Virus record (IMG/VR): IMGVR_UViG_3300031687_000019 | Coordinates: 1-53,261 of that record | Reading direction: 5' to 3' (one strand) | DNA from: a virus | Taxonomy: Duplodnaviria > Caudoviricetes | Length of the DNA: 53,261 bases | Part shown: piece after piece, positions 4,453-50,086 of the stretch | How the letters are laid out: each line of letters opens with the position of its first letter | Position numbering within the stretch: position 1 is the first letter of the stretch | Translations under genes and position numbers: made by a program | The notes under the pieces: model-generated | Databases searched by the model: none | The model's input: the letters and a program-made list of their open reading frames with translations, nothing else | Told to the model about the DNA's origin: nothing

Positions 4453-4713
4453 ATGGATCACACAGAAGAATATAGACTAGGAAGCGTTGCGAATAGACAA
4501 AAGACAATGTCTCAAAGCAGCATATCACCAGAAGGTGAAGGTGCCGTATGGGGAGGACCCTTAAGTCAAGAGGGTAGGCCTCACGTACCCGGAAACTCTA
4601 GGGGACCACAAGGAATTCAAGTACTAAAGTACCCTACACCATATACTTACGAGCCAATAACACAATGCGCTAAAAAAGGAAAATACTTTGAAGCTTACAC
4701 GAAATTTTCTTAA
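4453..4713 (+). CDS. hypothetical protein
   Basis: ORF with A-rich leader in operon. Confidence 0.65.
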   Translation: MDHTEEYRLGSVANRQKTMSQSSISPEGEGAVWGGPLSQEGRPHVPGNSRGPQGIQVLKYPTPYTYEPITQCAKKGKYFEAYTKFS

Positions 4714-10133: not shown

Positions 10134-10350
10134 AGAATTAGTAAAGGTAGCAGAGGAAAAGATCGTTGACTCAGAGGAAGATATATCCGCTGACAGACTT
10201 AAAAATGCTGCCGCTACTAAAAAGCTTTGTATACTAGATGCTTTTGAAATATTAAACAGAATACAGGAAGAAGAAAATATGATTGCGGATGCAACTAATA
10301 CTTCGGATAAACCTGCGTTTAAAGGCTTTGCAGAGGGGAGATCCAAATAA
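10078..10350 (+). CDS. probable terminase small subunit
   Basis: small helical protein translationally coupled to terL (TAATG); positional inference. Confidence 0.5.
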   Translation: MNSIETKRSIIAAGHKAIKELVKVAEEKIVDSEEDISADRLKNAAATKKLCILDAFEILNRIQEEENMIADATNTSDKPAFKGFAEGRSK

Positions 10351-16134: not shown

Positions 16135-17607
16135 ATGAGTTTATTACCACAATTTGGGGCTATTGTCCCTTCACAATCACAGCAAATACTTAACACTAAC
16201 TACCTACAATGGACCGCCAATGGGGGAGCTGGTGCAGTACCTGCTAATTTCGCTGACTTCGCTCAGCAGTATTTACCAGAAATTTATGAAGCAGAAGTAG
16301 AGCGTTATGGAAACAGAACGTTAGCTGGATTTCTAAACATGGTTGGCGCTGAAATGCCAATGACTTCTGATCAAGTTATTTGGTCTGAACAAAATCGTTT
16401 GCATATTGCTTATGACGATTGTACTTACGCCGGAGGAGCACCTACTGTATTAATTATAGGAGGGGGCGCTACCGCGCAAAACGTAATGTCTATTAACGAT
16501 ACAGTTGTTCTTTTGGACACAGTAACAGGAACAGAAGCTAAGGCTGTTGTAACCGCTACTGTACCTGGAGCGTCTGGTGTTGGAAGTGTTACTCTTCAGT
16601 TTTACAACGGAAACGTATTAAACACTGCTGGATCTGTATTCACATCTGGTGCTATTAAGGTTTTCGTATATGGATCTGATTACTCTAAAGGTACCACTAT
16701 TGGTACGGGAGCTGGAAATTCAGCTGCTAGAGTATCTGTAGAACCTGTGCTGACACAGTTTTCAAACTCTCCAATCATTATTAGAGATCAATATGTTGTA
16801 TCTGGATCAGATACCGCTCAGATCGGTTGGGTAAATGTAGCAACGGAAGACGGAACTGATGGATACTTATGGTACCTAAAAGCAGCGTCTGAAACTCGCT
16901 TACGTTTTCAAGACTACTTAGAAATGGCTATGGTAGAAGGAGAATTAAATACAAATGCAGGGGCAGGTGCTTATCAGGACCTACAGCAGCCAGGAACACA
17001 AGGTTTGTTTGCAGCTATCTCGGATAGAGGTAATGTACAAACTGGATTCACAGCCGCTAACGGACTAACTGAATTTGATGCAATTCTTAAAAACCTAGAT
17101 ACTCAGGGGGCAATTGAAGAGAACATGTTGTTTTTACAACGTCAAACTGCTTTGGACTTTGATGATATGCTAGCTGCGATTTCTAGTGGACAAACTGGAG
17201 GAGTTGCTTATGGTTTATTTGAAAATTCAGAAGACATGGCGCTTAACTTAGGATTTAGTGGGTTCCGTAGAGGATCTTACGATTTCTATAAGACAGATTG
17301 GAAATACTTAAATGATGCGTCTACTCGTGGAGGAATCACTGGAGTTAATTCAATCGAAGGTGTATTAGTACCAGCTGGAACATCAACTGTTTACGATCAA
17401 ATTTTAGGAACAAATATCAGACGTCCATTTTTGCACGTACGATACAGAGCTTCTCAAACTGACGACCGTAGAATGAAATCTTGGTTAACAGGATCTGTTG
17501 GTGGAGCTAGTACTTCAACTCTTGATGCAATGGAAGTAAACTTCCTATCTGAAAGATGTTTAGTAACGCAAGCTGCTAACAACTTTGTACTATTCAAAGG
17601 AATCTAA
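16135..17607 (+). CDS. major capsid protein
   Basis: 490 aa after the scaffold, followed by a strong terminator; VIWSEQ, GTQGLF and LGFSGFRRG motifs. Confidence 0.85.
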   Translation: MSLLPQFGAIVPSQSQQILNTNYLQWTANGGAGAVPANFADFAQQYLPEIYEAEVERYGNRTLAGFLNMVGAEMPMTSDQVIWSEQNRLHIAYDDCTYAGGAPTVLIIGGGATAQNVMSINDTVVLLDTVTGTEAKAVVTATVPGASGVGSVTLQFYNGNVLNTAGSVFTSGAIKVFVYGSDYSKGTTIGTGAGNSAARVSVEPVLTQFSNSPIIIRDQYVVSGSDTAQIGWVNVATEDGTDGYLWYLKAASETRLRFQDYLEMAMVEGELNTNAGAGAYQDLQQPGTQGLFAAISDRGNVQTGFTAANGLTEFDAILKNLDTQGAIEENMLFLQRQTALDFDDMLAAISSGQTGGVAYGLFENSEDMALNLGFSGFRRGSYDFYKTDWKYLNDASTRGGITGVNSIEGVLVPAGTSTVYDQILGTNIRRPFLHVRYRASQTDDRRMKSWLTGSVGGASTSTLDAMEVNFLSERCLVTQAANNFVLFKGI

Positions 17608-20769: not shown

Positions 20770-23700
20770 ATGGCACAAGAAATTAAAAACACATTTCTAA
20801 AATCCAAGATGAATAAAGATCTTGACGATAGAATATTGCCTAACGGCGAATATAGAAATGCTCGGAATATATCAGTTGGTAGATCTGAGGATAACGATGT
20901 TGGTGCTCTAGAAAACGTAATTGGGAACAATTTAGTTGCTGGTACCGATATTGAATCAGGATTAACCATTATAGGAATTAAAGAAAGCAATTCTTTAAAT
21001 CAACTTTTTGTATTTCTAACGGACTATAAAGATCCAAATCCCCTCAACCCCACTAACGCACCTACTACTTCAAAGCATTATATTTATTCGTATAATAATA
21101 CAACAGGAGCATATACTAGATTAGTGCAAGGGGAATTTTTAAATTTTTCGACTACAAATAGAATACTAGGTATAAATTTAATTGAAAATTTATTATTTTG
21201 GACAGACAATAGAAATCAGCCTAGAAAAATAAATGTTAATGTAGCAAGAGCTTTTACACCAGGTGGTTTATCTACTGTTAGTGGCGATTATTATACGGAG
21301 GAACACCAAATATCTGTTGCAAAGTATAATCCGTACCAAGCTATAGATCTTTACAATAGAGTTAATTTAAAAGTAAGATCAGGAGCAACAACGACTACTT
21401 TCACTTTAGAAGATACGAGTAGAGCAGAGCTTATTGAATTTATAGGAGCAACAGTTGTTTGCACAGAAACAAACCCTCCAACGCAAGGCGTTAATTTTGT
21501 TGAGGTTGTTAGCATTACTGATTCTTTCAGCTTACCTAATATTGTAACTATAACTGTTTCGCCGGCAATGCAAGCGGCCCCTGCGGTAGGAGATTTTGTT
21601 TCTCTTATACAGTCTACAATGACTAATAAAAACAACGATGCCCAGTGGCCTGGGGATCCGGATTATTTAGAGGACAGATTTGTTAGGTTTAGTTACAGAT
21701 TTAAGTTTGATGATAACGAATACTCTTTAATGGCTCCTTTTACGCAGATAGCATATATTCCAAAACAAAAAGGGTATTTTATTAATGGGGACGAGGACGC
21801 AGCTTATCAATCTACTATAGTTGGATTCATGGAAAACATGGTTCAAAATATAAGTTTAGTTATACCTTTGCCCGCATCTGCAAGTAAAATAATAGCTGAC
21901 TATAAAATTAGCGGAATAGAAATATTATTTAGGGAAAGCGACGGTCTTGCGGTAAAAGTACTTGAAAAAATTTCTGCAAATGAAATTTCAGGAGCGAGTG
22001 GTATAGATAGTTATTACACATACGAATATCAATCAAGAAAGCCATATAGAACTTTACCTGAAGCTCAAACAGTAAGAGTGTTTGATAAAGTGCCTGTTAG
22101 AGCCTTTTCTCAAGAATCAGCGGGTAATAGAATTATATACGGTAATTTTAGAGATCAGCATACTCCTCCTGCAAATATAAATTATAATTGTAGAATAACT
22201 AAAAAGTCTACAACTGGAGCATATAATAATTGGATAGAGTATCCTAATCATTCCGTAAAAAGAAATAGAAATTATCAGGTAGGATTTGTTTTAGCAGACA
22301 AGTTTGGAAGACAATCTCCAGTTTTGCTTTCATCCGTGGGATCGGGTAGCGAAAATAATGGTACATTTTATTCTGGGTCTACAATATACAGCCCTTATGA
22401 TTTACTAAAAACAGATACGGATGTAGATACTTGGTTTGGAGATGCAATACAAGTATTAGTAAATTCACCTATTGAATCTGAAATAGATAGTGCCGCAGGA
22501 ACACCTGGTCTTTATGCTTTAAAGCAACAAAATGCCTCCACCGGAGAAGGTTTTGCTATCACAGCAGGTCTTTCGGTCTCAGGCGCTTCACCTATAACAA
22601 ATAGTACTTGGACGTTCTTTTTAAAAGACACTGTATATCCTAACAACGTTAATATACCTGCTGTAGGCGATTATTTAAGAGGTGCTCGTCAAGACTTTGT
22701 TAAAGTTACAGCTATAACAAACCCTACTTTAAATCAATATATTGTTGTCACGGACGGCAGAGTAAGTGATACCTATTTAAGAACCTTGGAGTTATCCGCT
22801 AGCGCACCGGATTTAAAATTTGCTTACACCATAAACGATTTAGGGTGGTACAGCTATAAGATAGTTGTAAAACAAACCGAACAAGATTACTATAATGTTT
22901 ATTTGCCAGGAATACTTAACGGATACCCTGGACAGAGTGCCGCTGGGGTGGCGGAAGGACCTTTTCCAACAGACGAGGTAAATCTTACTGCCCATACTGT
23001 TTTATTTAATGACAACATAAATAAAATTCCTAGAGATTTAGCCGAGGTTGGTCCTGATCAAAAACAATTTAGAAGTTCCGCAACTCTTTACGGTGTTGTA
23101 TCTAATACAATGATTAATGTATCAGGAACTGGTACTGCTTCCAATACACAATATTACCCGAGGCTTCAGTCCATGGGCCCAAATGCTATTTCGCATACAT
23201 CGACAGCTATTGCTGCAGCAGACGAATTTGATATGGCTTTTACAGATCTTTCTTCAACAACCGGAACCACTGGTATTGTAGGGGGTGATAATGGAAATAA
23301 AGTTTTTTATCAAATAGATACAAAGCCATTAGTAGCAAGGATATCCACCACGGAAAAACCAATAGGGCAAAAAAATATCACAACTGGAGCGGGAACTCCA
23401 TACAATATGCTTCCTTATCTATCTGTCTATGAAACAGAGGCAGTGGAATCTCTTTTAGATATTTATTGGGAAACCACTTCATCTGGATTAATCGTTGATC
23501 TAAATCAAGATGTGGCTTCAACAAATGTTGGTGTAGTTGGTTTTGAAAACCTCAACTGGGAATTTAAAGAAGACACTGTACAAAATCAAGCTGTTACTCC
23601 TTCGTATTTTAGTGCTATAAATAATGAAGGAGATCCTTATTTGGGAGATTTAACGCCTTCTTTAACCAGTATAACAAACGGAGATAATTTAGAAAACACT

Positions 23701-25746
23701 GATTTTGATATTATAAAAGGAATTGCAGGTACTGTTAATGAAGGAAAATTTCAAATTATATATACAAAAGCTGAATCCCCTATTTATGAAGCAGTCAGCC
23801 CTACAAGGGATGTTTATTCCTTTCAAGTAACTCTTACCCCCCCAACTGGGGAACCTTTCGTAATACAGCTTAATGGTGTAGAAGGAGGTTTTGGGGCTTT
23901 AGAAAACATTCAGCCAACAATAAACCAGCCCGGCAATATAACTAACGCTACGCCTTCCACGGCAACGTTAATATCTGTGAGCGATATTGATGGTTTATCT
24001 CCTAAAAACGGTAGTGCTACAGCGGCTGGTGAGAGAACAGGCCTCCGGTTTTTCTTAAGAAAAAACACAAGTGTAGCCGGTAACTCTCTTCCTGATAATT
24101 GGGAAATGAATGAGACCACCGGAAAATTAACCCAACTTACCCCAAACAATGAGTTTGAGGGCAACGGGTTAGCTACATACAATGTAAGATTAACAGTAAC
24201 TGATGCCTTCGGATCAATTACTTCACCTCTTCAGTCTGAAGGATATTCTGCTCTTAGGACGGAAGTAAATTTTAGTATAACACTAAACCCCACTCCATTA
24301 AACACAGGGGCAAAAACAGTCCTTGCGAATTGCGTAGTAAATGGAGGAGGAACTTTTACAAACAACTTACCTACTCAAATATTTCAAGCTAATTATGATG
24401 CATTATTTTCCAATGCTGTAAATGGCATTGTACAGACCCTGCCGGGTGGTGTATTTGGACATTGGAAATGGGGAAGCCCTGACAATAGCCCTCTTGGCAT
24501 AGGCGGTATCAAAAGAGGGCAAAGCGTAACTAGCTGTATTTATTACATAGGAAAGAGTGACCCTTTAGTGGAAGGCAGCGGCGCTAGCAATGAGATACTT
24601 AGCACAAATAAGGGGCTTAATATAAATTTCACTCCTGCCAATAATGACTCTATACCTACGTTTTATCACAAAATAGGTACAGATTCCCATACAAGCGGTG
24701 TAATACATTTTACAATCAATACTTTCTCTCCTAGTAGATTTCAGCAAGTGCCTAATGTATTTGCGGTTCCAGCAGCAAGGTTTTACTACAGACAACCAAC
24801 AGCTGACGACTCAAACCCAGATTGGATACAATTACAAAGAAGTCAAGAAATGAACCAAGTAGGTTCTTCAGGGCCGGATTTTACAGTTTCCCCTAAAAAA
24901 GACGGACCCGCTTTGGTAGAAACTTTTTTGGCCTCTTCCCAAAACACACCATCTTCAGAAGTTACGGTAGATCGAACTATAAGTAATTCACAAGACCAAA
25001 GGGGTGTCTGGGTGCAGACAATGAGAGCATTTGATTTTAATGATTTATATGATTCTAATGCTAGTGGGGCTAGTTCAGCTGCGGGTATTGAATACGCAAT
25101 AACTCTTTTCGGACAACAACAAAATAAGCCTCATTCAAATGCACAACCACCAGGCACAAATAATGGTACTGTGAGATCTTATGTAATAGCGGACGATTTG
25201 AACTTTCCCACCTGTGCAGTATGGCAAGCTACAAATCTTTACACTGCAAATGGAGGAGTACCTGGCAAATTGTTTAAGTATGACACTAGCACTACTGGTA
25301 CCGATAGCCCCACGGCTTGGAGATACATAGACAACGATACTCAGCCAACTCACACCTATAGATTTGCTAGAAGCCCTTATGGTGATTACGTGACTGAGTT
25401 ATACACAAATGCTACAAGTAATGTTTTGTTTATACCCGCAGCAGAAAACCAGAAATGGATAAACATTAAATTAGATAGGGGCCTTTTAAGCCCTGTTCCA
25501 AATCAGTATAATAACTTGGTAGATACCGATGTTTACGGTAACACCGTTCCAGGTCAAAATACTATAGGGCAGGATCTTCAATTTAATGTAGGCTTTTCAA
25601 CTGTCGCAGGTAGAAAAATACCTAGCGGGTATGCTGAAGTTGGAGTAGCCGGTGTGAGGGTATTTGAAGAAGAAAGCTTGCAGTACAATCATTTACAAAA
25701 CTACAGAACAAAGGGAACTTTAAGAGTAGCTAAACCACTCAATTAA
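20770..25746 (+). CDS. tail nozzle/stabilisation protein, N-terminal part, with a variable beta-rich C-terminal extension
   Basis: KMNKDLDDRILPNGEYRNARNI, LLFWTDNRNQPRKIN, RFSYRFKFDDNEYS. Confidence 0.65.
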   Translation: MAQEIKNTFLKSKMNKDLDDRILPNGEYRNARNISVGRSEDNDVGALENVIGNNLVAGTDIESGLTIIGIKESNSLNQLFVFLTDYKDPNPLNPTNAPTTSKHYIYSYNNTTGAYTRLVQGEFLNFSTTNRILGINLIENLLFWTDNRNQPRKINVNVARAFTPGGLSTVSGDYYTEEHQISVAKYNPYQAIDLYNRVNLKVRSGATTTTFTLEDTSRAELIEFIGATVVCTETNPPTQGVNFVEVVSITDSFSLPNIVTITVSPAMQAAPAVGDFVSLIQSTMTNKNNDAQWPGDPDYLEDRFVRFSYRFKFDDNEYSLMAPFTQIAYIPKQKGYFINGDEDAAYQSTIVGFMENMVQNISLVIPLPASASKIIADYKISGIEILFRESDGLAVKVLEKISANEISGASGIDSYYTYEYQSRKPYRTLPEAQTVRVFDKVPVRAFSQESAGNRIIYGNFRDQHTPPANINYNCRITKKSTTGAYNNWIEYPNHSVKRNRNYQVGFVLADKFGRQSPVLLSSVGSGSENNGTFYSGSTIYSPYDLLKTDTDVDTWFGDAIQVLVNSPIESEIDSAAGTPGLYALKQQNASTGEGFAITAGLSVSGASPITNSTWTFFLKDTVYPNNVNIPAVGDYLRGARQDFVKVTAITNPTLNQYIVVTDGRVSDTYLRTLELSASAPDLKFAYTINDLGWYSYKIVVKQTEQDYYNVYLPGILNGYPGQSAAGVAEGPFPTDEVNLTAHTVLFNDNINKIPRDLAEVGPDQKQFRSSATLYGVVSNTMINVSGTGTASNTQYYPRLQSMGPNAISHTSTAIAAADEFDMAFTDLSSTTGTTGIVGGDNGNKVFYQIDTKPLVARISTTEKPIGQKNITTGAGTPYNMLPYLSVYETEAVESLLDIYWETTSSGLIVDLNQDVASTNVGVVGFENLNWEFKEDTVQNQAVTPSYFSAINNEGDPYLGDLTPSLTSITNGDNLENTDFDIIKGIAGTVNEGKFQIIYTKAESPIYEAVSPTRDVYSFQVTLTPPTGEPFVIQLNGVEGGFGALENIQPTINQPGNITNATPSTATLISVSDIDGLSPKNGSATAAGERTGLRFFLRKNTSVAGNSLPDNWEMNETTGKLTQLTPNNEFEGNGLATYNVRLTVTDAFGSITSPLQSEGYSALRTEVNFSITLNPTPLNTGAKTVLANCVVNGGGTFTNNLPTQIFQANYDALFSNAVNGIVQTLPGGVFGHWKWGSPDNSPLGIGGIKRGQSVTSCIYYIGKSDPLVEGSGASNEILSTNKGLNINFTPANNDSIPTFYHKIGTDSHTSGVIHFTINTFSPSRFQQVPNVFAVPAARFYYRQPTADDSNPDWIQLQRSQEMNQVGSSGPDFTVSPKKDGPALVETFLASSQNTPSSEVTVDRTISNSQDQRGVWVQTMRAFDFNDLYDSNASGASSAAGIEYAITLFGQQQNKPHSNAQPPGTNNGTVRSYVIADDLNFPTCAVWQATNLYTANGGVPGKLFKYDTSTTGTDSPTAWRYIDNDTQPTHTYRFARSPYGDYVTELYTNATSNVLFIPAAENQKWINIKLDRGLLSPVPNQYNNLVDTDVYGNTVPGQNTIGQDLQFNVGFSTVAGRKIPSGYAEVGVAGVRVFEEESLQYNHLQNYRTKGTLRVAKPLN

Positions 25747-25754
25747 TAGAATAA

Positions 25755-27365
25755 ATGGCAGCAATAATAGAATTAAAATACTTTAATACGTTTTGGCTTA
25801 AAAAAATTAAATCCATTACAGACGTTGAGCCGGGATACACCGCTCAGGTTAATGAATTTGATCCGGCGACTAGGGTAATTCTTATGAATAATTCAGCGGA
25901 CGCAACTGAGATGAACGTAGGCCAGGAAATTACAATTAAATGGACTGTTTTCGGTACTGAGATTACGTATAAAACTAGTATAGTTGAAAGAATTGATACA
26001 CCATCATTTGGGTTTAGGTTTAAACTTGCTGACGATCCGCCGGTGCCTCTTCCCGCTAACCCACTTTCTGGTTACCCAGGTGGAGTAAATGCCGCTCTTG
26101 GCAAAATTATCAATTTTGATAATATACCCCAAGCCTATATAGCTACAGCAGATGTAGATACGGATTGGCTACTGGAAGAATCCAGAATACGAGGCGGATA
26201 TAATAATACGAGCGTAGATTTAGGAGTTAAGGCTTATTTAGTAGAGGAAGACCCTAGGCAAAAACATAGATTTAGTTCACTTATACATTCTGGCATATTT
26301 AATTCTAGAACAAATGTTAACCAAACAAATCAATTTTCAGTCGGCGAAGACATAACCCGTACAATTGACCCAGCTAATGGATCTATACAAAAACTATACG
26401 CGGAAGACACTAACCTAATTATTTTTCAAGAAAGTAAAGTAAGTAAATCTTTAATTGATAAGGACGCAATATACTCAGCTGAAGGAAACGCTAGCGTTAC
26501 TAGTCGTAATCTAGTTATTGGGCAAAACGTGGCTTACGCAGGGGAGTATGGCATAAGCACAGATCCTGGATCATTTGCAGTTAATGGATACAGAAAGTAC
26601 TTTACTGACAGAAATCAAAATGTTGTGTGCAGATTATCCATGGACGGCATTACAGTTATATCCGGCTATGGTATGGCAGACTTTTTTAGAGATAAGCTTT
26701 CCACCGCTAAAGATAATTTAGTAGGTGGCTGGGATGCCCATAACAAGCAATACATTCTATCTATACCTCAGTCTACTAGCAACTTCTCCTCAGAGAGCAG
26801 CTATGACACATTAGCATTCGACGAAACAGCTAAAGGCTGGGTAAGCCTTTATAGCTACAAACCTAATCAAATTGTTAGCTTAAATAACAATTATTTTACA
26901 ACTTTCGAAGGAAAATTATGGAAGCATTATGAAAAACCTCCAAATAACTCGTCAATGGTTCGATTCTACGGAGTAACCTACAGAGCGGAAGTAACTTTTG
27001 TTTTTAATGGAGGCCCTTCTGTATCTAAAAACTTTCAAACCATAAACTACGAAGGAGATAACGGGTGGAGTATGTCTGAATTTAAAACTAATACGGACAG
27101 CGCTTTACCTATATCACAAGCAATTTTTGCCACCACTTTGGATCAAATGCAAAACTCATTATTAATTAATAGTTTTAAATTAAAAGAAGATAAATATTAC
27201 GCGGATATTACAAATAATACATCGTCACAAAGAGGAGAAGTTGTATTTGGAAGATCCTCTTCAGGAGTAAAAGGATTTTTTGCCACTGTAACTATGTACA
27301 CCCAGAGTGGAAGTCAAAGAAAAGAATTGTTTGCAGTAAGCACAGGGTTTGTACAATCATCATAA
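25755..27365 (+). CDS. tail nozzle/stabilisation protein, C-terminal part
   Basis: GSIQKL, IFQESK, YAGEYGIS..PGSFA..YFTD, FDE..KGWVS, KNFQTINYEG. Confidence 0.65.
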   Translation: MAAIIELKYFNTFWLKKIKSITDVEPGYTAQVNEFDPATRVILMNNSADATEMNVGQEITIKWTVFGTEITYKTSIVERIDTPSFGFRFKLADDPPVPLPANPLSGYPGGVNAALGKIINFDNIPQAYIATADVDTDWLLEESRIRGGYNNTSVDLGVKAYLVEEDPRQKHRFSSLIHSGIFNSRTNVNQTNQFSVGEDITRTIDPANGSIQKLYAEDTNLIIFQESKVSKSLIDKDAIYSAEGNASVTSRNLVIGQNVAYAGEYGISTDPGSFAVNGYRKYFTDRNQNVVCRLSMDGITVISGYGMADFFRDKLSTAKDNLVGGWDAHNKQYILSIPQSTSNFSSESSYDTLAFDETAKGWVSLYSYKPNQIVSLNNNYFTTFEGKLWKHYEKPPNNSSMVRFYGVTYRAEVTFVFNGGPSVSKNFQTINYEGDNGWSMSEFKTNTDSALPISQAIFATTLDQMQNSLLINSFKLKEDKYYADITNNTSSQRGEVVFGRSSSGVKGFFATVTMYTQSGSQRKELFAVSTGFVQSS

Positions 27366-30222: not shown

Positions 30223-33200
30223 ATGTACGAGTACTTAATCAACAAAGAAACAGTAATTTTTGAAAACGAGAAAGACATGCTCGCGGGTCTTAAAGCCGCG
30301 GAAGAAGCGGAATATAGTATAGAGCTAATCAGAGATGATAGCATGGCTCAAAAATCAGAGGATACTTCCACGTTTGGCAAGCCTCAAAAAGAAGACACAT
30401 TTGTGTTTGGGAATCCTACCCCAGAAGAGCAGCTACAAGCTACTCAAAGCGAAGCGTCACAAGGAAATTTTACACAAGACCCTGTAGAGAGTGCGGATGC
30501 GGTGTCGGAAACTGTAGCACAAGACGATACGGAATTACCGCAGGAAGATACTTCTTTGGATTTACCAGAAGATGATTTTCAAATTAAATTAGATAAGCTT
30601 AAAGAACTTAAAGACTTTAGAGCTAAATCACCTAATGGCACTCTGCCAACAGATGGAGAGGCGTTTCAAAAGTTAAAAGATTACGACTATAATAAAGATT
30701 TAGGAATAATAAATACTGAAACAAGAGAAAAAGACCCGATAAAACAAGCTGAATTACAAGAATTTAAAGACTTTTCGCAAAACAGTTTAAACTCAGGTAT
30801 ACTACAGCAGCTAAATGTCAAAGGGGTTTCTTTACCAGCTAAAATACAAAACGGGCTTGAAAAAGAATATAGAAAGTATATAAAAGATAATTATGAAAAT
30901 TTTATTACTACTAGAACTGTTGCGGAGGTAGCTGTAAATATTACCAAAGATAAGCAAATGCCAACGGATTTTGCTATTGATCAAATTGTAGCGGAACAGT
31001 TGCAAGGGCTTCAAGAAAAGCAAAATAATGAAGAAAAAGAAAAAGAACAAATATTAGGTAGAGGTGTATCTAAGAACCCTACGCAAAAAGTAATTTCGGC
31101 TATAAAAGGTAGAATAGATAATGCCCCTGCTAACCGAAAACTATTTGGGGCAACAAGCCAAAGAATTGATGCTATTGATAGAAAACTAGCACCCAGTAAT
31201 CTTCTGCCAGACAACGAAAGACTTGCTTTAGAAGATGAAAGAAGAGCGCTAATTATTTCATCTGCTGAGGCTTTTGAAAGAATGAATCCTGCGGGATCCG
31301 CAAACCCATATAGGGACGGGTTTGAGTACGCTGGTAAAAGCAAAAAAAATAAACTAACTCAATTTTTTAATTTAGAAACGGGAGCGCAGGTAATGCCCGC
31401 GGAAGCTGCTTTAAGCAATGAAAAGCTTATTACCGCGCCTCCGGAGATGATTGCTGAAGCTGAAAGATTAGCCAAGCTGGCTAGAGAACCATTAAAAGCT
31501 GCTTTTTATTACAATGTTCTGAAAGAGACCCAAATAAACGAAGATCTTAAAAAAACATTTGATTTTAATCCAAACAAAGCTTACGAGCGGAGAGTTAATA
31601 AAGGCGAAGGAATCGGGCAAGGCCCAATGGATAAATCCCGTTTAAGAGTGTACCTTGAATCTAAGGGTTATACGCCAAATGAGAACGGCTTGTATACAAA
31701 TGTAACAGCTGAAGATTTATTACCTTTAAAAGACATGAACCTATCCGGAAGGTTTGGTATATTTAGTGAAGACGGCGGCTCTATATTAGACGACGCATTC
31801 GTCCCACGAGAAGGAGAATTGTCTACCCCAGCTATGTTTATACAAAATTTAGCGGAGGAAAGAATGCAAAACTCAATAGAGGGTAATGCACTAAACAGGG
31901 CTTACTTGTTTAACATCGATCCCGGCTCAGAAAAACTAGACGCAGGAGACTACGTAGCAACTTTTGCTAAAAAAGCCGCGGCCGGCACATTGGATTTACT
32001 GCCTGACAGCATGACTTCAAGGTACATTGATGAATTGCCTTTAACTCAGCGAGAAATGCTAGATAATTCCGAACAAATGTTAATGAATGCTGGTATTGAA
32101 ATAACTGAAGAGCAAAAAGAAAATTTTGCTAGAGGCTATGGCATGAAGGCGGTAGAACAACTAGGTGATTTTGCTCCTATGCTTATAAATTTTGCTTTTC
32201 TTAATAAAGCAGCAGGAGCCGCTGGAATGACTAGAATGATCGGTACTTTAATGAAGGGAGGGCCGAAACAAAAAGCAATGGGGCTAATTTTTGGCGCTTT
32301 ACTTGAAGAAGTAAAATTTGAAGCGGCCACTTATGGTGAAGCTAAAACACTAGGGGGTACTGGATTTTTTGCAGGGGGCCAAGTAGCTAATGCTTTACTA
32401 AAAGGAAGAATGGGTGCGTTGGCTAGAAAAATATTAGGAGGAGCCGTCGGAGGTACAGCAGGTAGTGAAACTGCTAAAGTTGCTGAATCTATGGCAGAAG
32501 ATCTTATGGGTGACAAAGATTTTAAAACCAGTATGCAAGAATATTACGGTGATATTGACGAAGTTACCGAGAGGCTAATAATTGACGGTATAGTTTTTGG
32601 TGTATTAGGTATGACCCATGCTAAAAAAATAGACTTCATGAAGCAAAGTGCTAAGCAAAAACTTTCTTCAAAGCTAAATCGAGAGATTAATGATATGTCT
32701 TCCATACTTACTCCAAAAGAACTTAGTAAAAAGAAAAACTTGAAAGCTGAACTTGATCAAGACCTAGCGCTTGATAACGAGGCGTTTAGCAAATTAGCTA
32801 TAGGAGATCAAATAAAAAATGCTAAAGCTGCTAAAGCTAGACTAAATGAACTAGATGCGCAACTAAAAAGTGATCCTTTTGAAGGCGGACTAACGTCTTC
32901 TGCAGCTAAATTTGAGATGTGGGCAGAAAGAGGAATGCTGGAAAATATAATTTCTCGCGTTGACGCAAATAAAATGGCGGCCAGAAAGTCAATAAACGAT
33001 CAAGCCAATAACTTTAAAGAAAGCATAGGCAAGCCTGATATGCCTGTTATTATAACAGAGAATGGTGAGGGGATGGCCCTTGGTAACAAGGGTGAATTTC
33101 AGTTTGAATCAGTTAACGGCAAGCCGTCCATAATAGTAGATTTATCTTTATACCAGCCTGGTGTTCTAAGTCAAGAGGGCTTTCATGCACAAATGGCATT

Positions 33201-36200
33201 TGCTTTTGGGAAAGGATCCGGACTTAAAAATGTAAGCCTTGAAGTTGCTAAAAAGCTAAGAGAAAAAATAGAACCCGCTGTAGAAAAAGCTTTAGCAAAT
33301 GAAAGATTTGTTATAAGCGACGGTGAAGGCGGAACTAAAAATGGTACATTTAAAGAAGCTATAGAGGATGCTTACAGGGAAGATCCCGCTAAAACAGATG
33401 AAGAATACGTAGCTAACATTATAGAATTTCTGGGTAATAAAAAATACAGAAACCTTTTACTAGATAATTCTTTAATGGGTAAGCTTAATAAAGCTGTAAG
33501 GAATACCGCTAAAGATTTAGGCATAAGTAAACAAAATGTTGATCAGAACTTAACTACAGCTGAACAAACATTAGACTTCTTATATACTTTATCAGATTTT
33601 TCACAGGGCCCCGGAAGAGGTAAGAAGAACTTTGCTGCGTTTAAAAACCTTTCAATTGATGGGACTAAGCTGGTTGATATGAAAACCAATACGGAAATTA
33701 CAACTGCAAAGGAAATTAAAAAAGACATTTCAGCATCTAAAGAAATAAAACCTGAAGAGAAAAAAGATATATTTTCAAAAGCAACAAGTGTATACGAAAA
33801 GATGATGGCTGACGGAGAAAGCATGGACCAAATCGGTGTGATGGTTGGATACGAATTTCAACCTCTAGTAAGATCTAAGCTGAGGTCTTATCTTACTGTC
33901 AAAGCGCTAGACAATGTTTCGGATCAAGTTATAGAAGACATCGTTTCAGATGTTACATTGGGTGATGGAAAAGGAGGTTCTCAAAATATACCAGGACTAG
34001 TTAAATCATACAAAGAAAGTGGTGAAGCCAGTTTAACTTCTTATATTTTTGGTCAATTAAATAACAAAATATTAGGCGCACTTCAACAACCAGCATATCG
34101 CGATATATTCAACACTTTTTCTATAGATGCTAATCCGGGTCAAGCTGAAAGACTAGCCGAAGGAGAAGGTTTAGGAGGCGAAGGGATTTCTGATGGGTAC
34201 GTAGATTTATCTTCACCCGAACAAAATGTTAGGATAAACAGGATTAAAGCAGAAGTTACGCTTAAATTGCCTGCTGAGTTAAAAGAAGATATTAATAGCA
34301 TAGGAGAGCGTCTTTTAATGTCTACCCCGTTAAAAAATCTTGAAGCTAAACAGGAAGGTAGTATAAAATTACCAAGCGGTAAGACAGCTGAAATCGTTAT
34401 ATCAAAAAGTGAGCAAGCCACTATTGAAATAGAGGGGGAACCCTCTGAAACTGTAAGAGTTAGATCTCCTAAAATTCTAGAAGAAAAATTCGGAACAGGT
34501 AAAAAGTCTTTTGTAAAAAAGCCTACTACTAAAGAAAAGCTTTATAGAGACGGCATTGACTTAATATACCCTAAGCTAGAAAAAGCTGTTGGGGGATTAA
34601 AAGACAATTATACTGCTACCCCGGAATACGAGGCTTTTGTAGACAATGCATATCCTTTGCTTAAAAATTATCTAAGCCAATCGGCTATTAACAAAAGATT
34701 TGCAGACTTCAAAGAACCAGCTATAGATAAAAAAACAGGCAAAATACTTAAGAAAAAAACTTCCGCAGGAGGAACCGTATTTACAAAAAAAGATGTAAAG
34801 TTAGCTGAGTGGAGAGGATACTTTTTAGGAAATGGTAGCAAGCGTATAGACGGGCGTAGACGATCTATAATAGAGGCATTTTCAGGAGAATTTGTATTTG
34901 ATTCTGTAATGGAATCATTATCTAATGAAGCCATAAGAAAGCAAATAGAATCAAGACAAGAAGATATTGGTGTTGAGCTACTAGATAATTTTGTAACAGT
35001 TATTGCTAAAGAGATAGATCGTGGCAACCCAGGGGTTATGGCATCTAAGATAATAAAAATTGCTAATGAGTTTGGTGTAGACCCTTACAACATGCTTTTC
35101 GATAAAAACAATAACCTAAGACCTATAGATGAAATAGCAATGATGCCTGGTGGGCCTGAGGCTTTAGGTGAATTATATAGAGGGGCACAAGCTGAGCTTA
35201 CAAGGCAACTACAAAACAGAGCGAAGGATCAGGAAATAAACACGGTAGATAAACTTGATAAATACTATAAGGACAACCCTGAGTTATTTACTCCTGAAAT
35301 GCGAGAAGCGGTAAAAGAAGTAAGAACATTGTCAATGGAAGATTTCAAAAATTTTAAGGATCAAACCGACTTTTTAGTGACATTATTTCCAGAAAAATTT
35401 TCTGAATTTTCTTTAGAAACCGTGGATGTTGGTGTGCCAAATAGTTTTTTATCTCAAATATTTTCAGCAAACTCTAGAACAAACAAGGCTACGGAAGCTT
35501 TTTACATTAATAAAGGTTTATCAGCGGAAGCCGCAAAGAAGAAAGCTACCATTAACAGGGAAGAGTTTACTAAAAAAATTAAAGGCAAAATAGGCACAAA
35601 CTATAATGCACCTGAAATGAAGCAAGCTAGAGAGGCGTGGGAAAGAGTAATGGAATTAGCTGAGGAAAACAATATTGATCGAAAAATTACTAATAAAAGC
35701 GTTAAAGTACAAAGAGGTATTACCATACTTAAGCAGGCAAAAGAGTATCAGGATGCAGTTGAAGCTATAATTTACTTGACAACAAATTTAACTACAAAGC
35801 AAAGAAAGGCTGAAATTAGCAAAATAGAGGGTTACGATGCTTACAAAAAGGCTATGGAATTACAAGTAGCTACATTAGATGCGATTTTACTTACATTTGG
35901 GGCAGCTTCCAAGATGGTAAAAGGAACTGCTGCAGAGCAAAAGGCTAGTAGAGATAATATATTCAAGGCTTTAGGCACTATGCTTTTAAACAACGATAAA
36001 GGGTTTAGAAATTTGTCACCTGAAATATACTACGAAATAAGAGATGGAGGTATAAAGGATCCTAAAAACGAACATTTGTTATCTAAAGCGGAATTTGCTA
36101 CTAGGGTTTTAACAGCATTTAATGAAGGAAGATTAAATACATTAGAAGAAGTAAAAGAAGTTTCTTCTGAATACGTTAGTTTAGTTGGGGAGCGAGCAGT

Positions 36201-39200
36201 GCAAAAAGCCGCAGATGCTTTTATGGGACCTACTGCGGAAAACAACAAAGAAGCAAAAATGCTAGATTTTGTTAAAGGAGAAACGAACAGACAATTTTCT
36301 ACAGCAGATTTAATTAAGCTAGATTCCGTTATAAACTTAATAACAGGTAAATCCGCTTTGCAGGAAATGATAGAAGCTCAAGCTAGGAAAGCATTAAACA
36401 TGCCCCTCCGCAGTTCAACAGAAGCTCTGTCTAATAACAATAAAATTTTGCTAGAATCAGGAATGATGACCACGGACAGCAAAACTACAATTTCCGCTTC
36501 TAAAAAAATAATAAATCTTGACCAAGCTTTTGAAAACGGTAAAGATCCAAATAAAAAACCTAAAGGTATAAGTGTATTTGATTTTGATGATACATTAGCA
36601 CGTACTAATAGTAAAGTGCTATACACAATGCCTGACGGTACTAAAGGTAAATTAAATGCAACCGAGTTTGCAAAAAAATCTGAAGCACTTGAGGCCAATG
36701 GTGCTGAGTTTGATTTCAGTCAATTTAGCGAAGTTGTTAAAGGTAAGTTAGGTCCATTGTTTTCTGAGGCTAAAAAGAAAGAAGGTAAGTATACTAATAA
36801 AGATGTATTTGTTTTAACCGCAAGGCCAGCTAATTCAGCTAAGGCTATATATGAGTTTTTAAAATCGGAGGGGCTAGAAATACCAATTGATAACATTGTA
36901 GGCTTAGGCGACGGCGCCGCTAAAGCTAAAGCAGAGTGGATGATAGGTAAAGTAGCGGAAGGATATAACGATTTCTATTTTGCTGATGATGCCATTAAGA
37001 ATGTAGAAGCTGTCCGTGATGCTTTAGGATTGTTCGATGTGAAGTCCAAAGTACAACAAGCTATAATGGCTTCTAAAAAGATAACTCTCGAGCGAGGCTT
37101 GTCCGAAATGATTGAACGTAAAAAAGGGATATCTTCTAAAGAACCCTTATCCGCCGCAATAGCATCTAACCTAGGTAAAAAGAAAGGTCGATTTGATTGG
37201 TTTATTCCGCCTAATGCAGAAGACTTTGCTGGATTAATGTACAAATTTTACGGCAAAGGAAAGCAAGGCGATAAGGATATGGCATTAATTAAAGAAACTT
37301 TAATAAGACCATTCAATCGAGCGGAAAACGCAATAAGTACATATAAGCAAAACTTAGGTAATGATTACGCCTCTTTAGAATCTCAAATGAAAGATCTTAA
37401 AATCAGCATGACCAAAGAAACCAAAGACAGCCTAGAGCAAGCTAATGTGAACGCTGATCAAGCTACCCGGGTTTTTATATATAACAAGCTGGGATATAAA
37501 ATACCAGGATTAGAAAAAAATGAAATAGCAAACATATCTAAAATAGTTAATGGAGACGCAAGGCTTTCTGCTTACGCAAAAGGTGTTATGGGTATAACCA
37601 AAACAAAAGAAGTATTTCCTAGACCAGGTGAAACGTGGTACTCCAGTAATATACGCTACGAATTGTTTAAGTATTCTACCGAGGGAGTTAGAGGTCATTT
37701 CTTAAAAGACTGGCAAAAGAACGTTGATGAAATGTTTACTGAAGAAAACTTTAGCAGAATCGAAGCAGGGTACGGCAAGAATTACGTTAACAATTTAAAA
37801 GAAACGCTAGCCCGAATGAAAACCGGTAAAACAAGATCTGCTGATTTAGGTAAGGATGTTCAAGCTGGTATGGATTACGTCAACGGATCTGTAGGGGTTA
37901 TAATGTTTTTAAATACCAGGTCCGCTGTATTGCAGACAATATCCGCGGTCAATTATGTTAACTGGAGTGATAACAACCCATTACAAATAGGTAAAGCTGT
38001 TGCTAAACCAAAAGAGTGGGGTAAAACGTTTATGGAAATATACAACTCTGATTTTTTAAAGCAAAGAAGAGGAGGGCTTGAAATAAATGTGGAAGAAGCA
38101 GAAATCGCTAAAGCTGTAGAAAGAAGTAAAGGTAATGCTAGAAACTTATATGACAGCATGATAAAAATAGGATTTAAACCTACACAAATGGCGGATAGTT
38201 TTGCTATTGCATTTGGAGGAACTCCGTTTTTAATGAACAGAACCGCAACTTATGTTAAGCAAGGCTTATCCATGGAGGCCGCAAAGAAAAGAGCTTTTGA
38301 AGATTTTAGAGAGGTTTCTGAGGAATCGCAGCAATCATCAAGGCAGGATAGAGTGTCTAATATACAGACAGGTGTTGCGGGTAGATTGATATTTGCGTTT
38401 GCAAATACCCCAATGCAAATGTCTCGTATGACTAAAAAAGCTACGCTCGATTTAGCTAACAATAGAGGAGATGCTAAAACAAATATATCTAAGATGCTCT
38501 ACTATGGTGCTGTGCAAAGTTATATATTCTACGCGCTACAGCAATCTCAGTTTTTAAGATTGTTCGGTGGAGACGATGAAGATATGACCCAAGAGGAAAA
38601 AGATTTTAACAAAGCAAACAATGAAAAAAAGAATACTAAAATAGCAAGTAGTATGTTTGACAGTTTTATATCTGGATCAGGATCCCCGGGTAAAGTAGCA
38701 ATAACTGCTAAAAACACTATACTAGAGTATTATAAACAAAAAGAAAAAGGGTATAAAGCAGATTACGGTGATGTATTAAACGCAGCATTTTCTATATCAC
38801 CTCCGTTGTCTTCTAAAAGTAAAAAGGTTTACTCAGCTTATAAAAGCTATAAGCACTTTTCAACTAAAACAGGACAAAAAGAATTAGCAGAGTACGGGCA
38901 GTATGCTTTTGACAATCCAATGTTAATGGCTAACGCTAAAGTTTTTTCTTCCGTTAGTAATGTACCAGCCGATAGACTAATACAGAAAGTAAACAATCTT
39001 TATTCTGCGTTTACTGATGAAACTTTAACCCCTATACAAAGTATTGCATTGGCTGCTGGTTGGGACAAGTGGAGTTTAGGTTTATATGATCCAGACTTTA
39101 TGACTGCTGATGAAATTGCTGGGAATAAAGCAAAAAGAAAAGAACAATTAAAGAAAGAAAAAATAGCTAAAAAAGAAGCAGCTATAAATTCTTACGATAT

Positions 39201-39423
39201 GAAGATGAGTGAACCTGAAAGAAGAGACATACTTAAGGTGCTTTCAAAAAAGCAGCAGATGGACTCCTTAGGTGCTTTAGAGGTAAGTATAAAAAGAAAA
39301 AGAGAATTGTATAAAATGAAGGAGATAAATAGAATAGAAGAAATAATACGATTACAAAACAAAAGACAATTTTATATAGACACAAAAAACATAAATAAAA
39401 CTAGACAAGATTCTTTAAAATAA
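30223..39423 (+). CDS. giant (3066 aa) multidomain virion/ejection polyprotein
   Basis: last gene of the ejection module; zincin-like QEGFH...EE, sigma-2-like segment, HAD DFDDTL..TAR..DD, helical C-terminal ejection-type region. Confidence 0.8.
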   Translation: MYEYLINKETVIFENEKDMLAGLKAAEEAEYSIELIRDDSMAQKSEDTSTFGKPQKEDTFVFGNPTPEEQLQATQSEASQGNFTQDPVESADAVSETVAQDDTELPQEDTSLDLPEDDFQIKLDKLKELKDFRAKSPNGTLPTDGEAFQKLKDYDYNKDLGIINTETREKDPIKQAELQEFKDFSQNSLNSGILQQLNVKGVSLPAKIQNGLEKEYRKYIKDNYENFITTRTVAEVAVNITKDKQMPTDFAIDQIVAEQLQGLQEKQNNEEKEKEQILGRGVSKNPTQKVISAIKGRIDNAPANRKLFGATSQRIDAIDRKLAPSNLLPDNERLALEDERRALIISSAEAFERMNPAGSANPYRDGFEYAGKSKKNKLTQFFNLETGAQVMPAEAALSNEKLITAPPEMIAEAERLAKLAREPLKAAFYYNVLKETQINEDLKKTFDFNPNKAYERRVNKGEGIGQGPMDKSRLRVYLESKGYTPNENGLYTNVTAEDLLPLKDMNLSGRFGIFSEDGGSILDDAFVPREGELSTPAMFIQNLAEERMQNSIEGNALNRAYLFNIDPGSEKLDAGDYVATFAKKAAAGTLDLLPDSMTSRYIDELPLTQREMLDNSEQMLMNAGIEITEEQKENFARGYGMKAVEQLGDFAPMLINFAFLNKAAGAAGMTRMIGTLMKGGPKQKAMGLIFGALLEEVKFEAATYGEAKTLGGTGFFAGGQVANALLKGRMGALARKILGGAVGGTAGSETAKVAESMAEDLMGDKDFKTSMQEYYGDIDEVTERLIIDGIVFGVLGMTHAKKIDFMKQSAKQKLSSKLNREINDMSSILTPKELSKKKNLKAELDQDLALDNEAFSKLAIGDQIKNAKAAKARLNELDAQLKSDPFEGGLTSSAAKFEMWAERGMLENIISRVDANKMAARKSINDQANNFKESIGKPDMPVIITENGEGMALGNKGEFQFESVNGKPSIIVDLSLYQPGVLSQEGFHAQMAFAFGKGSGLKNVSLEVAKKLREKIEPAVEKALANERFVISDGEGGTKNGTFKEAIEDAYREDPAKTDEEYVANIIEFLGNKKYRNLLLDNSLMGKLNKAVRNTAKDLGISKQNVDQNLTTAEQTLDFLYTLSDFSQGPGRGKKNFAAFKNLSIDGTKLVDMKTNTEITTAKEIKKDISASKEIKPEEKKDIFSKATSVYEKMMADGESMDQIGVMVGYEFQPLVRSKLRSYLTVKALDNVSDQVIEDIVSDVTLGDGKGGSQNIPGLVKSYKESGEASLTSYIFGQLNNKILGALQQPAYRDIFNTFSIDANPGQAERLAEGEGLGGEGISDGYVDLSSPEQNVRINRIKAEVTLKLPAELKEDINSIGERLLMSTPLKNLEAKQEGSIKLPSGKTAEIVISKSEQATIEIEGEPSETVRVRSPKILEEKFGTGKKSFVKKPTTKEKLYRDGIDLIYPKLEKAVGGLKDNYTATPEYEAFVDNAYPLLKNYLSQSAINKRFADFKEPAIDKKTGKILKKKTSAGGTVFTKKDVKLAEWRGYFLGNGSKRIDGRRRSIIEAFSGEFVFDSVMESLSNEAIRKQIESRQEDIGVELLDNFVTVIAKEIDRGNPGVMASKIIKIANEFGVDPYNMLFDKNNNLRPIDEIAMMPGGPEALGELYRGAQAELTRQLQNRAKDQEINTVDKLDKYYKDNPELFTPEMREAVKEVRTLSMEDFKNFKDQTDFLVTLFPEKFSEFSLETVDVGVPNSFLSQIFSANSRTNKATEAFYINKGLSAEAAKKKATINREEFTKKIKGKIGTNYNAPEMKQAREAWERVMELAEENNIDRKITNKSVKVQRGITILKQAKEYQDAVEAIIYLTTNLTTKQRKAEISKIEGYDAYKKAMELQVATLDAILLTFGAASKMVKGTAAEQKASRDNIFKALGTMLLNNDKGFRNLSPEIYYEIRDGGIKDPKNEHLLSKAEFATRVLTAFNEGRLNTLEEVKEVSSEYVSLVGERAVQKAADAFMGPTAENNKEAKMLDFVKGETNRQFSTADLIKLDSVINLITGKSALQEMIEAQARKALNMPLRSSTEALSNNNKILLESGMMTTDSKTTISASKKIINLDQAFENGKDPNKKPKGISVFDFDDTLARTNSKVLYTMPDGTKGKLNATEFAKKSEALEANGAEFDFSQFSEVVKGKLGPLFSEAKKKEGKYTNKDVFVLTARPANSAKAIYEFLKSEGLEIPIDNIVGLGDGAAKAKAEWMIGKVAEGYNDFYFADDAIKNVEAVRDALGLFDVKSKVQQAIMASKKITLERGLSEMIERKKGISSKEPLSAAIASNLGKKKGRFDWFIPPNAEDFAGLMYKFYGKGKQGDKDMALIKETLIRPFNRAENAISTYKQNLGNDYASLESQMKDLKISMTKETKDSLEQANVNADQATRVFIYNKLGYKIPGLEKNEIANISKIVNGDARLSAYAKGVMGITKTKEVFPRPGETWYSSNIRYELFKYSTEGVRGHFLKDWQKNVDEMFTEENFSRIEAGYGKNYVNNLKETLARMKTGKTRSADLGKDVQAGMDYVNGSVGVIMFLNTRSAVLQTISAVNYVNWSDNNPLQIGKAVAKPKEWGKTFMEIYNSDFLKQRRGGLEINVEEAEIAKAVERSKGNARNLYDSMIKIGFKPTQMADSFAIAFGGTPFLMNRTATYVKQGLSMEAAKKRAFEDFREVSEESQQSSRQDRVSNIQTGVAGRLIFAFANTPMQMSRMTKKATLDLANNRGDAKTNISKMLYYGAVQSYIFYALQQSQFLRLFGGDDEDMTQEEKDFNKANNEKKNTKIASSMFDSFISGSGSPGKVAITAKNTILEYYKQKEKGYKADYGDVLNAAFSISPPLSSKSKKVYSAYKSYKHFSTKTGQKELAEYGQYAFDNPMLMANAKVFSSVSNVPADRLIQKVNNLYSAFTDETLTPIQSIALAAGWDKWSLGLYDPDFMTADEIAGNKAKRKEQLKKEKIAKKEAAINSYDMKMSEPERRDILKVLSKKQQMDSLGALEVSIKRKRELYKMKEINRIEEIIRLQNKRQFYIDTKNINKTRQDSLK

Positions 39424-49315: not shown

Positions 49316-50086
49316 CTAAAGTAAATCAGGTAGTTGCGCGTCATTTGTCTTCTCAATTAACTTGTCGATAGCCTTGCGTTTTATCTCAGATATACGCACT
49401 CCTTTCTTCTTGTAAGATCCCTCAATACCCAGTATCTCACAGATTTCAACAGCATCGTGCTTATTGCAATCAAGACCGTAACTTAGCCTTACAACCTCTC
49501 TTTCGCGATCTGTTAGATGTTTATTAATTAAAGCTAAAAGATACTCATTCATAAATGTAACGTTGTAATCTTTTGAATCATCTGGTATTTCAAGTTCAAA
49601 GTTTGAATCGCTATCATTACCGGATTTAAAATCACCCATGTATAATGACTTAGATTTGCTTAACAAATTACTAATTGCCGGATCGCTAGGTTGCTTACGT
49701 ATCTCTGTGATCTTCCATTCAGGAATTTTAATATCACCCATGTTATGGTTAATGTATCTTCTTATTGTTCCTTTAATTCTTTTTGATAGAAAAGATTTTA
49801 ATGTTTGTTCTATATTATTAGATTGATTTAGCAGAACCCAATCAATTTTATCTATAGCATTGATTAATCCTATATGACCGGACTGTATAAGATCATTTAT
49901 AGATAGTATTCCAATCGCTTGATGTGATGTGGCAAACTTCCGTGCTAAGTTTTCTGTTAGGGGCATGAACTTAATTATAAGGTTGTCTCTGGTGTACTCA
50001 TCAAAAAATACACGGGGTAAATTACTTAATGTACGTTTAAGATCTTTTTGGTATCTTACGTAGTTAGTTATATTATATTTCTTCAT
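49316..50086 (-). CDS. phage sigma-70-family factor
   Basis: region 2 PLTENLARKF..DLIQSGHIGLINAIDK..SKRIKGTIRR; region 4 LTDREREVVRLSYGL..RISEIKRKAIDKL. Confidence 0.9.
   Translation of the reverse strand: MKKYNITNYVRYQKDLKRTLSNLPRVFFDEYTRDNLIIKFMPLTENLARKFATSHQAIGILSINDLIQSGHIGLINAIDKIDWVLLNQSNNIEQTLKSFLSKRIKGTIRRYINHNMGDIKIPEWKITEIRKQPSDPAISNLLSKSKSLYMGDFKSGNDSDSNFELEIPDDSKDYNVTFMNEYLLALINKHLTDREREVVRLSYGLDCNKHDAVEICEILGIEGSYKKKGVRISEIKRKAIDKLIEKTNDAQLPDLL

Follow-up and report, generated by a model that had tools for sequence, protein, structure and literature searches.

A repeated heptad at the module junctions of a giant phage protein as a candidate set of processing sites

The IMG/VR contig IMGVR_UViG_3300031687_000019, whose entire 53,261 bp constitute the window analysed here, belongs to a phage. 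The virion gene block of this phage closes with an open reading frame (ORF) for a giant protein of 3066 residues, in which the heptad [IV][SM]ASKxI occurs four times. The four-heptad observation is real and far from chance. All four copies fall in predicted flexible linkers between folded modules, related proteins carry equivalent motifs at the homologous junctions, and each clade of relatives repeats its own spelling of the motif. We propose, as a reading that we hold possible rather than probable, that the heptads mark the junctions at which a polyvalent ejection protein is processed, with the zincin-like domain of the protein itself as the most likely cutter. In what follows, P0001 is the giant protein of the window, other P-numbers are its relatives, L-numbers are related loci, and J1 to J4 are the junctions at sites 1 to 4. 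The elements of the giant gene are located as follows.

30223..39423, plus strand: giant ORF (P0001), 3066 aa, closing gene of the virion block, with 0 Cys and 5 His
33040..33522, plus strand: candidate zincin-like region, about aa 940-1100, with strands, then the Q984-E985-G-F-H988 helix, then the E1060/E1061 helix
33172..33186, plus strand: QEGFH, aa 984-988, the window's version of the family HExxH, from the full-length alignment of relatives
33727..33747, plus strand: site 1 (J1), ISASKEI, aa 1169-1175, in a low-confidence segment of both structure models
33748..35034, plus strand: module B, aa 1176-1604, folded in two sub-blocks with a motif-free low-confidence loop of 37 residues between them
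35035..35055, plus strand: site 2 (J2), VMASKII, aa 1605-1611, directly after the conserved 'AKEIDRGNPG'
35056..36489, plus strand: module C, aa 1612-2089, fast-evolving and mostly helical
36490..36510, plus strand: site 3 (J3), ISASKKI, aa 2090-2096, preceded by a variable low-confidence stretch rich in S/T
36511..37062, plus strand: plausible HAD-like phosphatase module, aa 2097-2280, with FDFDDTL, VFVLTARP and YFADDA
37063..37083, plus strand: site 4 (J4), IMASKKI, aa 2281-2287, in a low-confidence segment that separates the last HAD strand from the C-terminal region
37084..39420, plus strand: C-terminal region, aa 2288-3066, the most widely conserved part of the family

A preliminary description of this DNA had placed the heptads at residues 1169, 1605, 2090 and 2281, and translation of 30223..39423 gives exactly these positions. 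In a six-frame scan of the 53261-nt window the strict pattern was found at these four places only. Shuffling the residues of the giant protein produced one match in 21 of 20000 shuffles and two or more matches in none (0/20000). The nearest relaxed match, ASASKII at residue 369 of the 1658-residue ORF 20770..25746, scores 7.8 bits and is not significant. We also built a position matrix from the relatives, which contains the window's four instances and is therefore circular for those. With this matrix the four sites score 17.9-28.6 bits and the next best segment of the giant protein -0.8, and the best score among the 37 other ORFs, 7.8 bits, is shuffle noise, lying under the 95% shuffle maximum of 10.6. 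None of the 37 other ORFs of the window contains the heptad, those for the capsid, scaffold-like and portal proteins included.

The codons of the heptads had been said to differ. They do so for Ala (GCA/GCT) and Lys (AAA/AAG), while Ser is encoded by TCT in all four copies. TCT accounts for 34% of the Ser codons of the giant gene (p ~0.014 for four out of four), and its use in the heptads probably reflects codon bias. Twenty distinct instances of the heptad Ser in relatives are encoded by TCT (10), AGT (8) and TCA (2). Since the relatives use all three codons, the constraint on the heptad acts on the protein, as had been argued at the outset, and a nucleotide-level signal at the Ser codon was rejected. 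The TCT codon also puts a TAA in the +2 frame (TC TAA A). A 2A-like reading of the 'NPG' that precedes site 2 was likewise rejected, NPG being present at one junction in one clade only; 2A-like skipping is not known to occur in bacteria.

The position of the heptads relative to the folded parts of the protein was analysed on two structure models, one of aa 1130-2329 (26-row alignment, mean predicted local distance difference test, pLDDT, of 70.8) and one of aa 800-1200. In the first model, 14 segments totalling 193 of the 1200 residues have a pLDDT below 50. The first residues of the four heptads (model positions 40, 476, 961 and 1152) are found within the segments 32-52, 469-478, 933-962 and 1150-1165, and the chance of all four starts falling in such segments is 0.16^4, or about 7e-4. 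These low-confidence segments sit between folded blocks. The second model again puts site 1 in a stretch of pLDDT below 50. In the predicted models the motifs are thus linker-borne at domain borders and not buried in folds, in agreement with the preliminary description.

The modules between the heptads evolve at different rates. Measured against 23 orthologues, each less than 60% identical, identity is highest in the HAD module (about 0.85), followed by the C-terminal region (about 0.75) and the moderately conserved module B (about 0.6), and lowest in module C (0.1-0.35). Conservation falls sharply from 0.68 to 0.29 at site 2 and climbs as sharply from 0.21 to 0.78 at site 3, and the step at site 1 is mild. 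The modules also differ in their distribution. The C-terminal region is present in 120 of 120 homologues among the matches listed. The HAD module is missing in 25 listed relatives (P0050-P0074), where a single motif is left at the point where module C meets the C-terminal region, and some relatives have about 300 additional residues between modules B and C. The expectation that cargo changes between motifs is thus borne out by the loss of the HAD module with retention of one motif at the fused junction. P0081, P0092 and P0089 have a pair of junction-type motifs (…YSKFSKNLSG…ASIKFSQNPKG), spaced by about 30 residues, directly ahead of the HAD module; cutting at both would release a short spacer peptide.

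The family comprises at least 436 metagenome proteins (E<=0.001), with 410 matches in IMG/VR viral contigs. A tblastn search with aa 801-2800 against 50,697 GenBank phage records gave no match, so the family is unrepresented in those records at that sensitivity, and a family profile found nothing among the PDB sequences. The gene is one uninterrupted ORF of 2062-3372 aa in 78 of 81 related loci, and two of the other three end at contig ends; no split forms were found among the 81 loci. Thirty-one aligned orthologues keep a motif at all four junctions, so that the equivalent motifs sought in orthologues do exist. The flanks of site 4 are highly conserved (FDVKSxVQQA-IMASKxI). The repeated motifs proved to be family-specific in the sense that each clade repeats its own spelling within its giant protein, with a Ser-Lys core that is near-invariant across clades. 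The spellings are the following.

MASK: the window's clade; three times in P0055-P0063
LNSK/MNSK: P0036/37
SS[KA]: P0028-31 and P0044-47
FSK: P0067-70
xKFS[KL]: P0076-P0121, at the same junctions; four copies in P0077 and four in P0106 (three by regular expression, another at aa 1205)
AFSI: P0075, at three junctions
KSNK: L010
ASKR, QFS[RK], [ML]RSK and [WF]SKG: other loci

These about eight spellings, each repeated inside its own proteins, constitute the stronger, qualitative point of this analysis. The concerted change was also quantified on 83 representatives, in which hidden Markov models (HMMs) of the conserved flanks placed the junction segments without reference to the motif, with 5000 permutations. 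J2 and J4 (n=56) share the same 3-mer within a protein in 36 of 56 cases, against 34% between proteins, a value reached in 0/5000 permutations for the 3-mer and 0/5000 for the mean 4-mer score. For J3 and J4 (n=72) the corresponding figures are 38 of 72 against 34%, with 1/5000 and 0/5000. In 10 related loci, picked for clear motifs and with patterns defined from the giant proteins, the clade motif is present in two to four copies in each giant ORF, and the other ORFs, about 41,000 aa in all, contain none.

When relatives were aligned over their full length, a near-invariant E..H became apparent upstream of site 1, in a region that sequence comparison and predicted structure tentatively place among the zincins. 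All of the 49 diverse relatives compared have E985, H988 and E1061, and at least 90% of them have His at position 984. An HMM of the region was searched with hmmsearch --max (the default filters missed many members, including P0001) and matches 194 of 202 family members, of which 135 have HExxH, 55 QExxH, 2 EExxH and one lineage HEITGH. Three of the 8 members without a match are truncated. The topology predicted by the aa 800-1200 model consists of three strands, the motif helix (182-196) and a Glu helix (256-271). A layout of strands, motif helix and Glu helix is the one expected of a gluzincin. E1061, located on a predicted helix 73 residues after H988, would be the third zinc ligand. Only two of the 5 His residues of the giant protein, H988 and H1951, are invariant. 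The language-model neighbours of aa 880-1168 are clusters with LPD23 (0.95, 187 shared features), LPD1/LPD5, ART-PolyVal and MuF_C, all of them families known from polyvalent proteins, which we take as a lead only. A complex prediction of the zincin region with Zn and a 40-residue piece around site 4 scored 0.01 and gives no evidence either way.

The presence of an xExxH region in the same protein makes processing of the heptads more plausible. In the mechanism we propose, the giant ORF would encode a 'polyvalent protein', a chain of unrelated modules that probably travels in the head and is ejected together with the DNA. The chain would begin with an N-terminal part containing the zincin-like region and continue through modules B and C and a HAD-type phosphatase to a conserved C-terminal part. 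The heptads would be recognition sites in the flexible inter-module linkers, and cutting would yield five pieces of about 1168, 436, 485, 191 and 786 aa. The most likely cutter would be the protein's own zincin-like domain (aa ~940-1100). If its own domain cuts its own sites, enzyme and sites would evolve together, which would produce a clade-own spelling at all junctions at once. The preliminary description had likewise proposed a processed polyprotein that releases effectors on injection. Linker siting, orthologue motifs, clade versions and module loss argue for its processing part, whereas we infer that the heptads are cut, at which bond, when (including 'on injection') and by which enzyme, and also the effector role.

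Polyvalent proteins of phages and plasmids were defined by Iyer, Burroughs, Anand, de Souza and Aravind (2017, J Bacteriol, PMC5512222). According to the part of that text available to us, zincin-like peptidases are predicted to process them into functional units, P1 DdrB is processed, and RNA-virus polyproteins are drawn as an analogy; in the same part no cleavage sites are named, 'cleavage site' appearing in the reference list only and 'linker' not at all. The giant protein resembles these proteins by its several unrelated modules, some of them enzymatic, by its portal, terminase and virion gene context and by its embedded HExxH region. It differs from them by the replacement of the first His by Gln in the window's clade and by the explicit, clade-varying junction motifs seen here. 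Several unrelated domains, as in polyvalent proteins, are indicated by its 3066 aa, its folded blocks, its stepwise conservation and its variably present modules. No Pfam family of the curated LPD, MPTase and ART-PolyVal sets came above the cut-off for P0001, P0106, P0077, 49 zincin-region sequences and 18 module-B sequences. The giant protein thus fits the polyvalent kind by architecture and context, not by curated family model.

Other known systems share some of these features. In MARTX toxins and RNA-virus polyproteins, an embedded protease cuts inter-module linkers at a short recognition sequence and releases modular cargo; their protease classes, organisms and modules are different, and there is no sequence relationship. 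The prohead protease of phages of the phiKZ/SPN3US type recognizes a short consensus. In the accessible parts of the reports on these giant phages (PMC10052503, PMC5694885), ejection proteins are cut at short motifs during maturation, as proposed here, but by a separate essential prohead protease that cuts many head proteins, whereas here the motif is in one protein only. The N4 virion RNA polymerase is also a giant encapsidated and ejected protein with a zincin-like domain (PMC5512222, in part); it is reported to enter the virion unprocessed, and no RNA polymerase module was detected in the window's giant protein. The 2811-aa virion protein gp47 of phi24B carries LPD5, LPD1, LPD38 and MuF-C metallopeptidase domains (bioRxiv 10.64898/2026.04.10.717836, in part). 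This very large podovirus protein is present in virions and invisible in the cryo-EM map; it has been proposed as an ejection protein that is carried inside the capsid and has a metallopeptidase domain. Its domains are others and Pfam-recognizable, peptidoglycan degradation and not self-processing is proposed for it, and the part of the report at hand describes no junction motif. The literature on polyvalent protein cleavage sites or metallopeptidase processing, as far as available in part, turned up no defined cleavage sites or junction motifs.

Several observations weigh against cutting of the heptads by the protein's own domain. The zincin-like region of the window's giant protein reads QEGFH in place of the canonical HExxH and lacks the first zinc-binding His, so that this copy could be inactive or altered. 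Peptidase_M78 matches 3 of the 49 members with a best E of 0.0029, no Pfam family lying above the cut-off, and a PDB profile search reached the small Zn proteases 1c7k and 4hx3 at E ~0.6. Foldseek gave MATCAP as its best match (E 0.17) and anthrax lethal factor at 0.58-1.3, with none at E<=0.001. Lethal factor also provides the only VIA matches that span the zincin core, and these are of middling Z (1j7n_B, Z 6.3, root-mean-square deviation 3.9, 152 aligned; 1pwp_B, Z 6.1, 178 aligned). A wide VIA-align run with the model of aa 800-1200 mainly picked up a helical hairpin (model residues 7-122) and gave no information on the zincin core. As for the junctions, the low-confidence linker aa 1297-1333 inside module B contains no motif, and no rate step is seen at site 4, whose flanks are very conserved. 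The concerted change is weak between J2 and J3 (n=45), with the same 3-mer in 15 of 45 proteins against 24% between proteins and 457/5000 permutations for the 3-mer and 163/5000 for the mean 4-mer score. More generally, the sequences of the relatives are not independent, and the permutation counts therefore overstate significance. An anchor-free test of the recurrence of the J4 5-mer, which has low power, gave a weak result: it reached p<=0.05 in 8 of 74 representatives, and in P0001 it found no more than one upstream copy at that threshold. The analysis shows the motifs, their siting in linkers, their conservation and concerted change, their confinement to one protein and the conserved xExxH...E region, and it is from these that we infer cleavage itself.

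The same concerted change, and the restriction of the motif to one protein, would also be expected if the heptads were not cut but bound a single co-evolving partner. They would then be docking motifs in linkers for a repeated partner, which might be the inner capsid surface, the portal, DNA, the phage GroEL-like chaperonin or a host factor, or else sites of Ser or Lys modification. The near-invariant Ser-Lys core suits a modification or binding site, and the N4 virion RNA polymerase, which has a peptidase domain of this type, is packaged uncut (Iyer et al., PMC5512222, in part). Siting at module junctions, however, is demanded by cutting and not by binding. One copy of the motif stays after module loss, two copies stand about 30 aa apart in P0081/P0092, and no docking partner is evident. 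We consider uncut heptads to be rather unlikely, if the most serious of the alternatives. A quite unlikely one is that the heptads are cut by a separate protease, either of the host or a divergent phage enzyme, and that the xExxH domain is an effector with another target such as the cell wall or a host protein. In favour of a separate protease, the window's QExxH lacks a canonical zinc ligand, and the hydrophobic-x-Ala-Ser of the MASK clade resembles the (V/L)-x-A|S sites of herpesvirus assemblin-type maturation proteases. The proposed peptidoglycan-degrading role of the phi24B gp47 metallopeptidase domain (10.64898/2026.04.10.717836, in part) points the same way. Yet the only other protease found in the 53-kb genome is an M15 endolysin-type peptidase, and PHROGs and Pfam detected no prohead protease in the head gene block, where a very divergent one could escape. 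The capsid, scaffold-like and portal proteins lack the motif, though a head-maturation protease would normally cut these too, and about eight clade spellings that change at all junctions together are hard to explain by a host protease.

The motif might finally have no function. One possibility is that it descends from the N-termini (Met-Ala-Ser-Lys) of formerly separate genes that fused; M-A-S-K, a common bacterial protein start, is found at two sites out of the four. Another is a preferred linker or helix-cap sequence that recombination keeps uniform in a family whose modules are shuffled. Against relic starts stand the single giant ORF of 78 of the 81 loci without split forms, the conservation of the residues before the 'M' (QAIMASK, PGVMASK), the replacement of M by S at two sites and the use of KFSK, AFSI and KSNK at the same junctions in other clades. 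The Ser codon family varies among relatives, which makes 21-nt recombination targets unlikely. A motif without function therefore appears very improbable to us, and processing of the junctions by the protein's own domain remains the reading that we prefer.

As to the identity of the modules, the HAD label of aa 2097-2280 is plausible. The module has motif I, FDFDDTL (DxDxT, aa 2119-2125), motif II, VFVLTARP (2195-2202), and motif IV, YFADDA (2252-2257), and it matches phrog_415 'polynucleotide kinase' (E 2.5e-4). These results fit the HAD module that had been placed between sites 3 and 4; the Pfam Hydrolase match (E 0.37) is below the cut-off, and Foldseek on the 1200-residue model gave weak matches to class C/B acid phosphatases (E 0.17-0.67, probability ~0.6) and nothing at E<=0.001. 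P0006 (aa ~2135-2320) and P0027 have an insertion of about 185 aa within the HAD module after DFDDTLARTKSNVLYTMPG, starting '...YYHGTS...', at the cap position and without bounding junction motifs. From its H-G-T/S pattern we guess that this insertion might be ADP-ribosyltransferase-like.

Module B (aa 1169-1605 with its borders) had been called sigma-like. A weak lead in this direction comes from the language-model search, where 26 of the 30 nearest named clusters carry Sigma70_r2 (score 0.93, only 115-123 shared features). The other searches did not bear the label out: 18 module-B sequences gave no Pfam match, a PDB profile search found nothing, Foldseek with the 1200-residue model listed no sigma row, and an hhalign comparison with the sigma-like ORF of the phage itself returned a probability of 0.3%. 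That separate ORF (49316-50086, minus strand), among the replication genes, matches phrog_351 at 1.2e-17, and the phage may thus have a sigma factor of its own that is distinct from any sigma-like module of the giant protein. In module C, the invariant His1951 ('KNEHL', window 36073-36075; column H822 of alignment A2) stands out in an otherwise fast-evolving sequence.

The source of the contig is a marine flavobacterial-type phage. The large terminase shares 63% identity with that of the uncultured podovirus MW202828.1 and 43% with those of the Flavobacterium 'elemo' podophages and of Cellulophaga phages. The plus strand carries a GroEL-like gene, a lysis cassette, the terminase, portal, scaffold-like and capsid-type genes, structural genes and then the giant ORF as the last one; the minus strand carries replication and nucleotide-metabolism genes and the sigma-like ORF. 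The main genes of the virion block upstream of the giant ORF are:

10350-12560, plus strand: terminase
12564-14975, plus strand: portal
16135-17607, plus strand: capsid-type protein

The ORF between the portal and capsid genes is acidic and scaffold-like. The position of the giant gene, in a context of terminase, portal, capsid-type and structural genes, is syntenic in MW202828.1 and in Flavobacterium phage elemoA. A simple finder revealed no clear repeated junction motif in the giant proteins of these two phages (3859 and 3694 aa, respectively), and that of MW202828.1, the closest named relative, is weakly similar to P0001 at the C-terminus alone (E 0.004). Its gene (L001:741-12320, minus strand) encodes three repeated modules, each of about 240 aa, as well as two HEFGH motifs, with no MASK/KFSK-type motif evident.

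Elsewhere on the plus strand, a GroEL-type chaperonin is encoded at 1725-3263 (phrog_5725, 1e-129; Pfam Cpn60_TCP1, 7e-51). The lysis cassette (4688-5074 and 6881-7285) comprises a Peptidase_M15_3 match (2.2e-19) and a holin-like ORF with three transmembrane segments (GTA_holin_3TM, 5e-5, just under the cut-off). The adjacent ORFs 20770-25746 (1658 aa) and 25755-27365 (536 aa) match positions 1-180 and 923-1259 of the 1474 of phrog_14478, and a gene of this type appears to be split or rearranged in the window compared with that family.

Polyvalent proteins are widespread in phages and conjugative elements, and their cutting by embedded peptidases was proposed in 2017. What is unusual here with respect to that proposal is an explicit, testable and clade-specific site grammar on a known type of polyvalent protein. 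Exact residues are on offer, namely the four sites in the window's phage and matched sets in other clades, and the natural variety of alleles (MASK, KFSK, AFSI, KSNK) could reveal the co-evolution of enzyme and site specificity. If the heptads are cut, module borders, and hence cargo, would be readable from sequence in uncultured marine phages. A further-reaching reading, which we judge unlikely as a whole, is that of an injected polyprotein that cuts itself with a working non-canonical zincin (H, Q or E before ExxH) and a co-evolving private 'specificity code' of at least eight spellings among marine phages, and whose module B is a sigma-like factor redirecting the host RNA polymerase early in infection. 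Should such a self-cutting code exist, phage polyvalent proteins would have their first explicit cleavage grammar.

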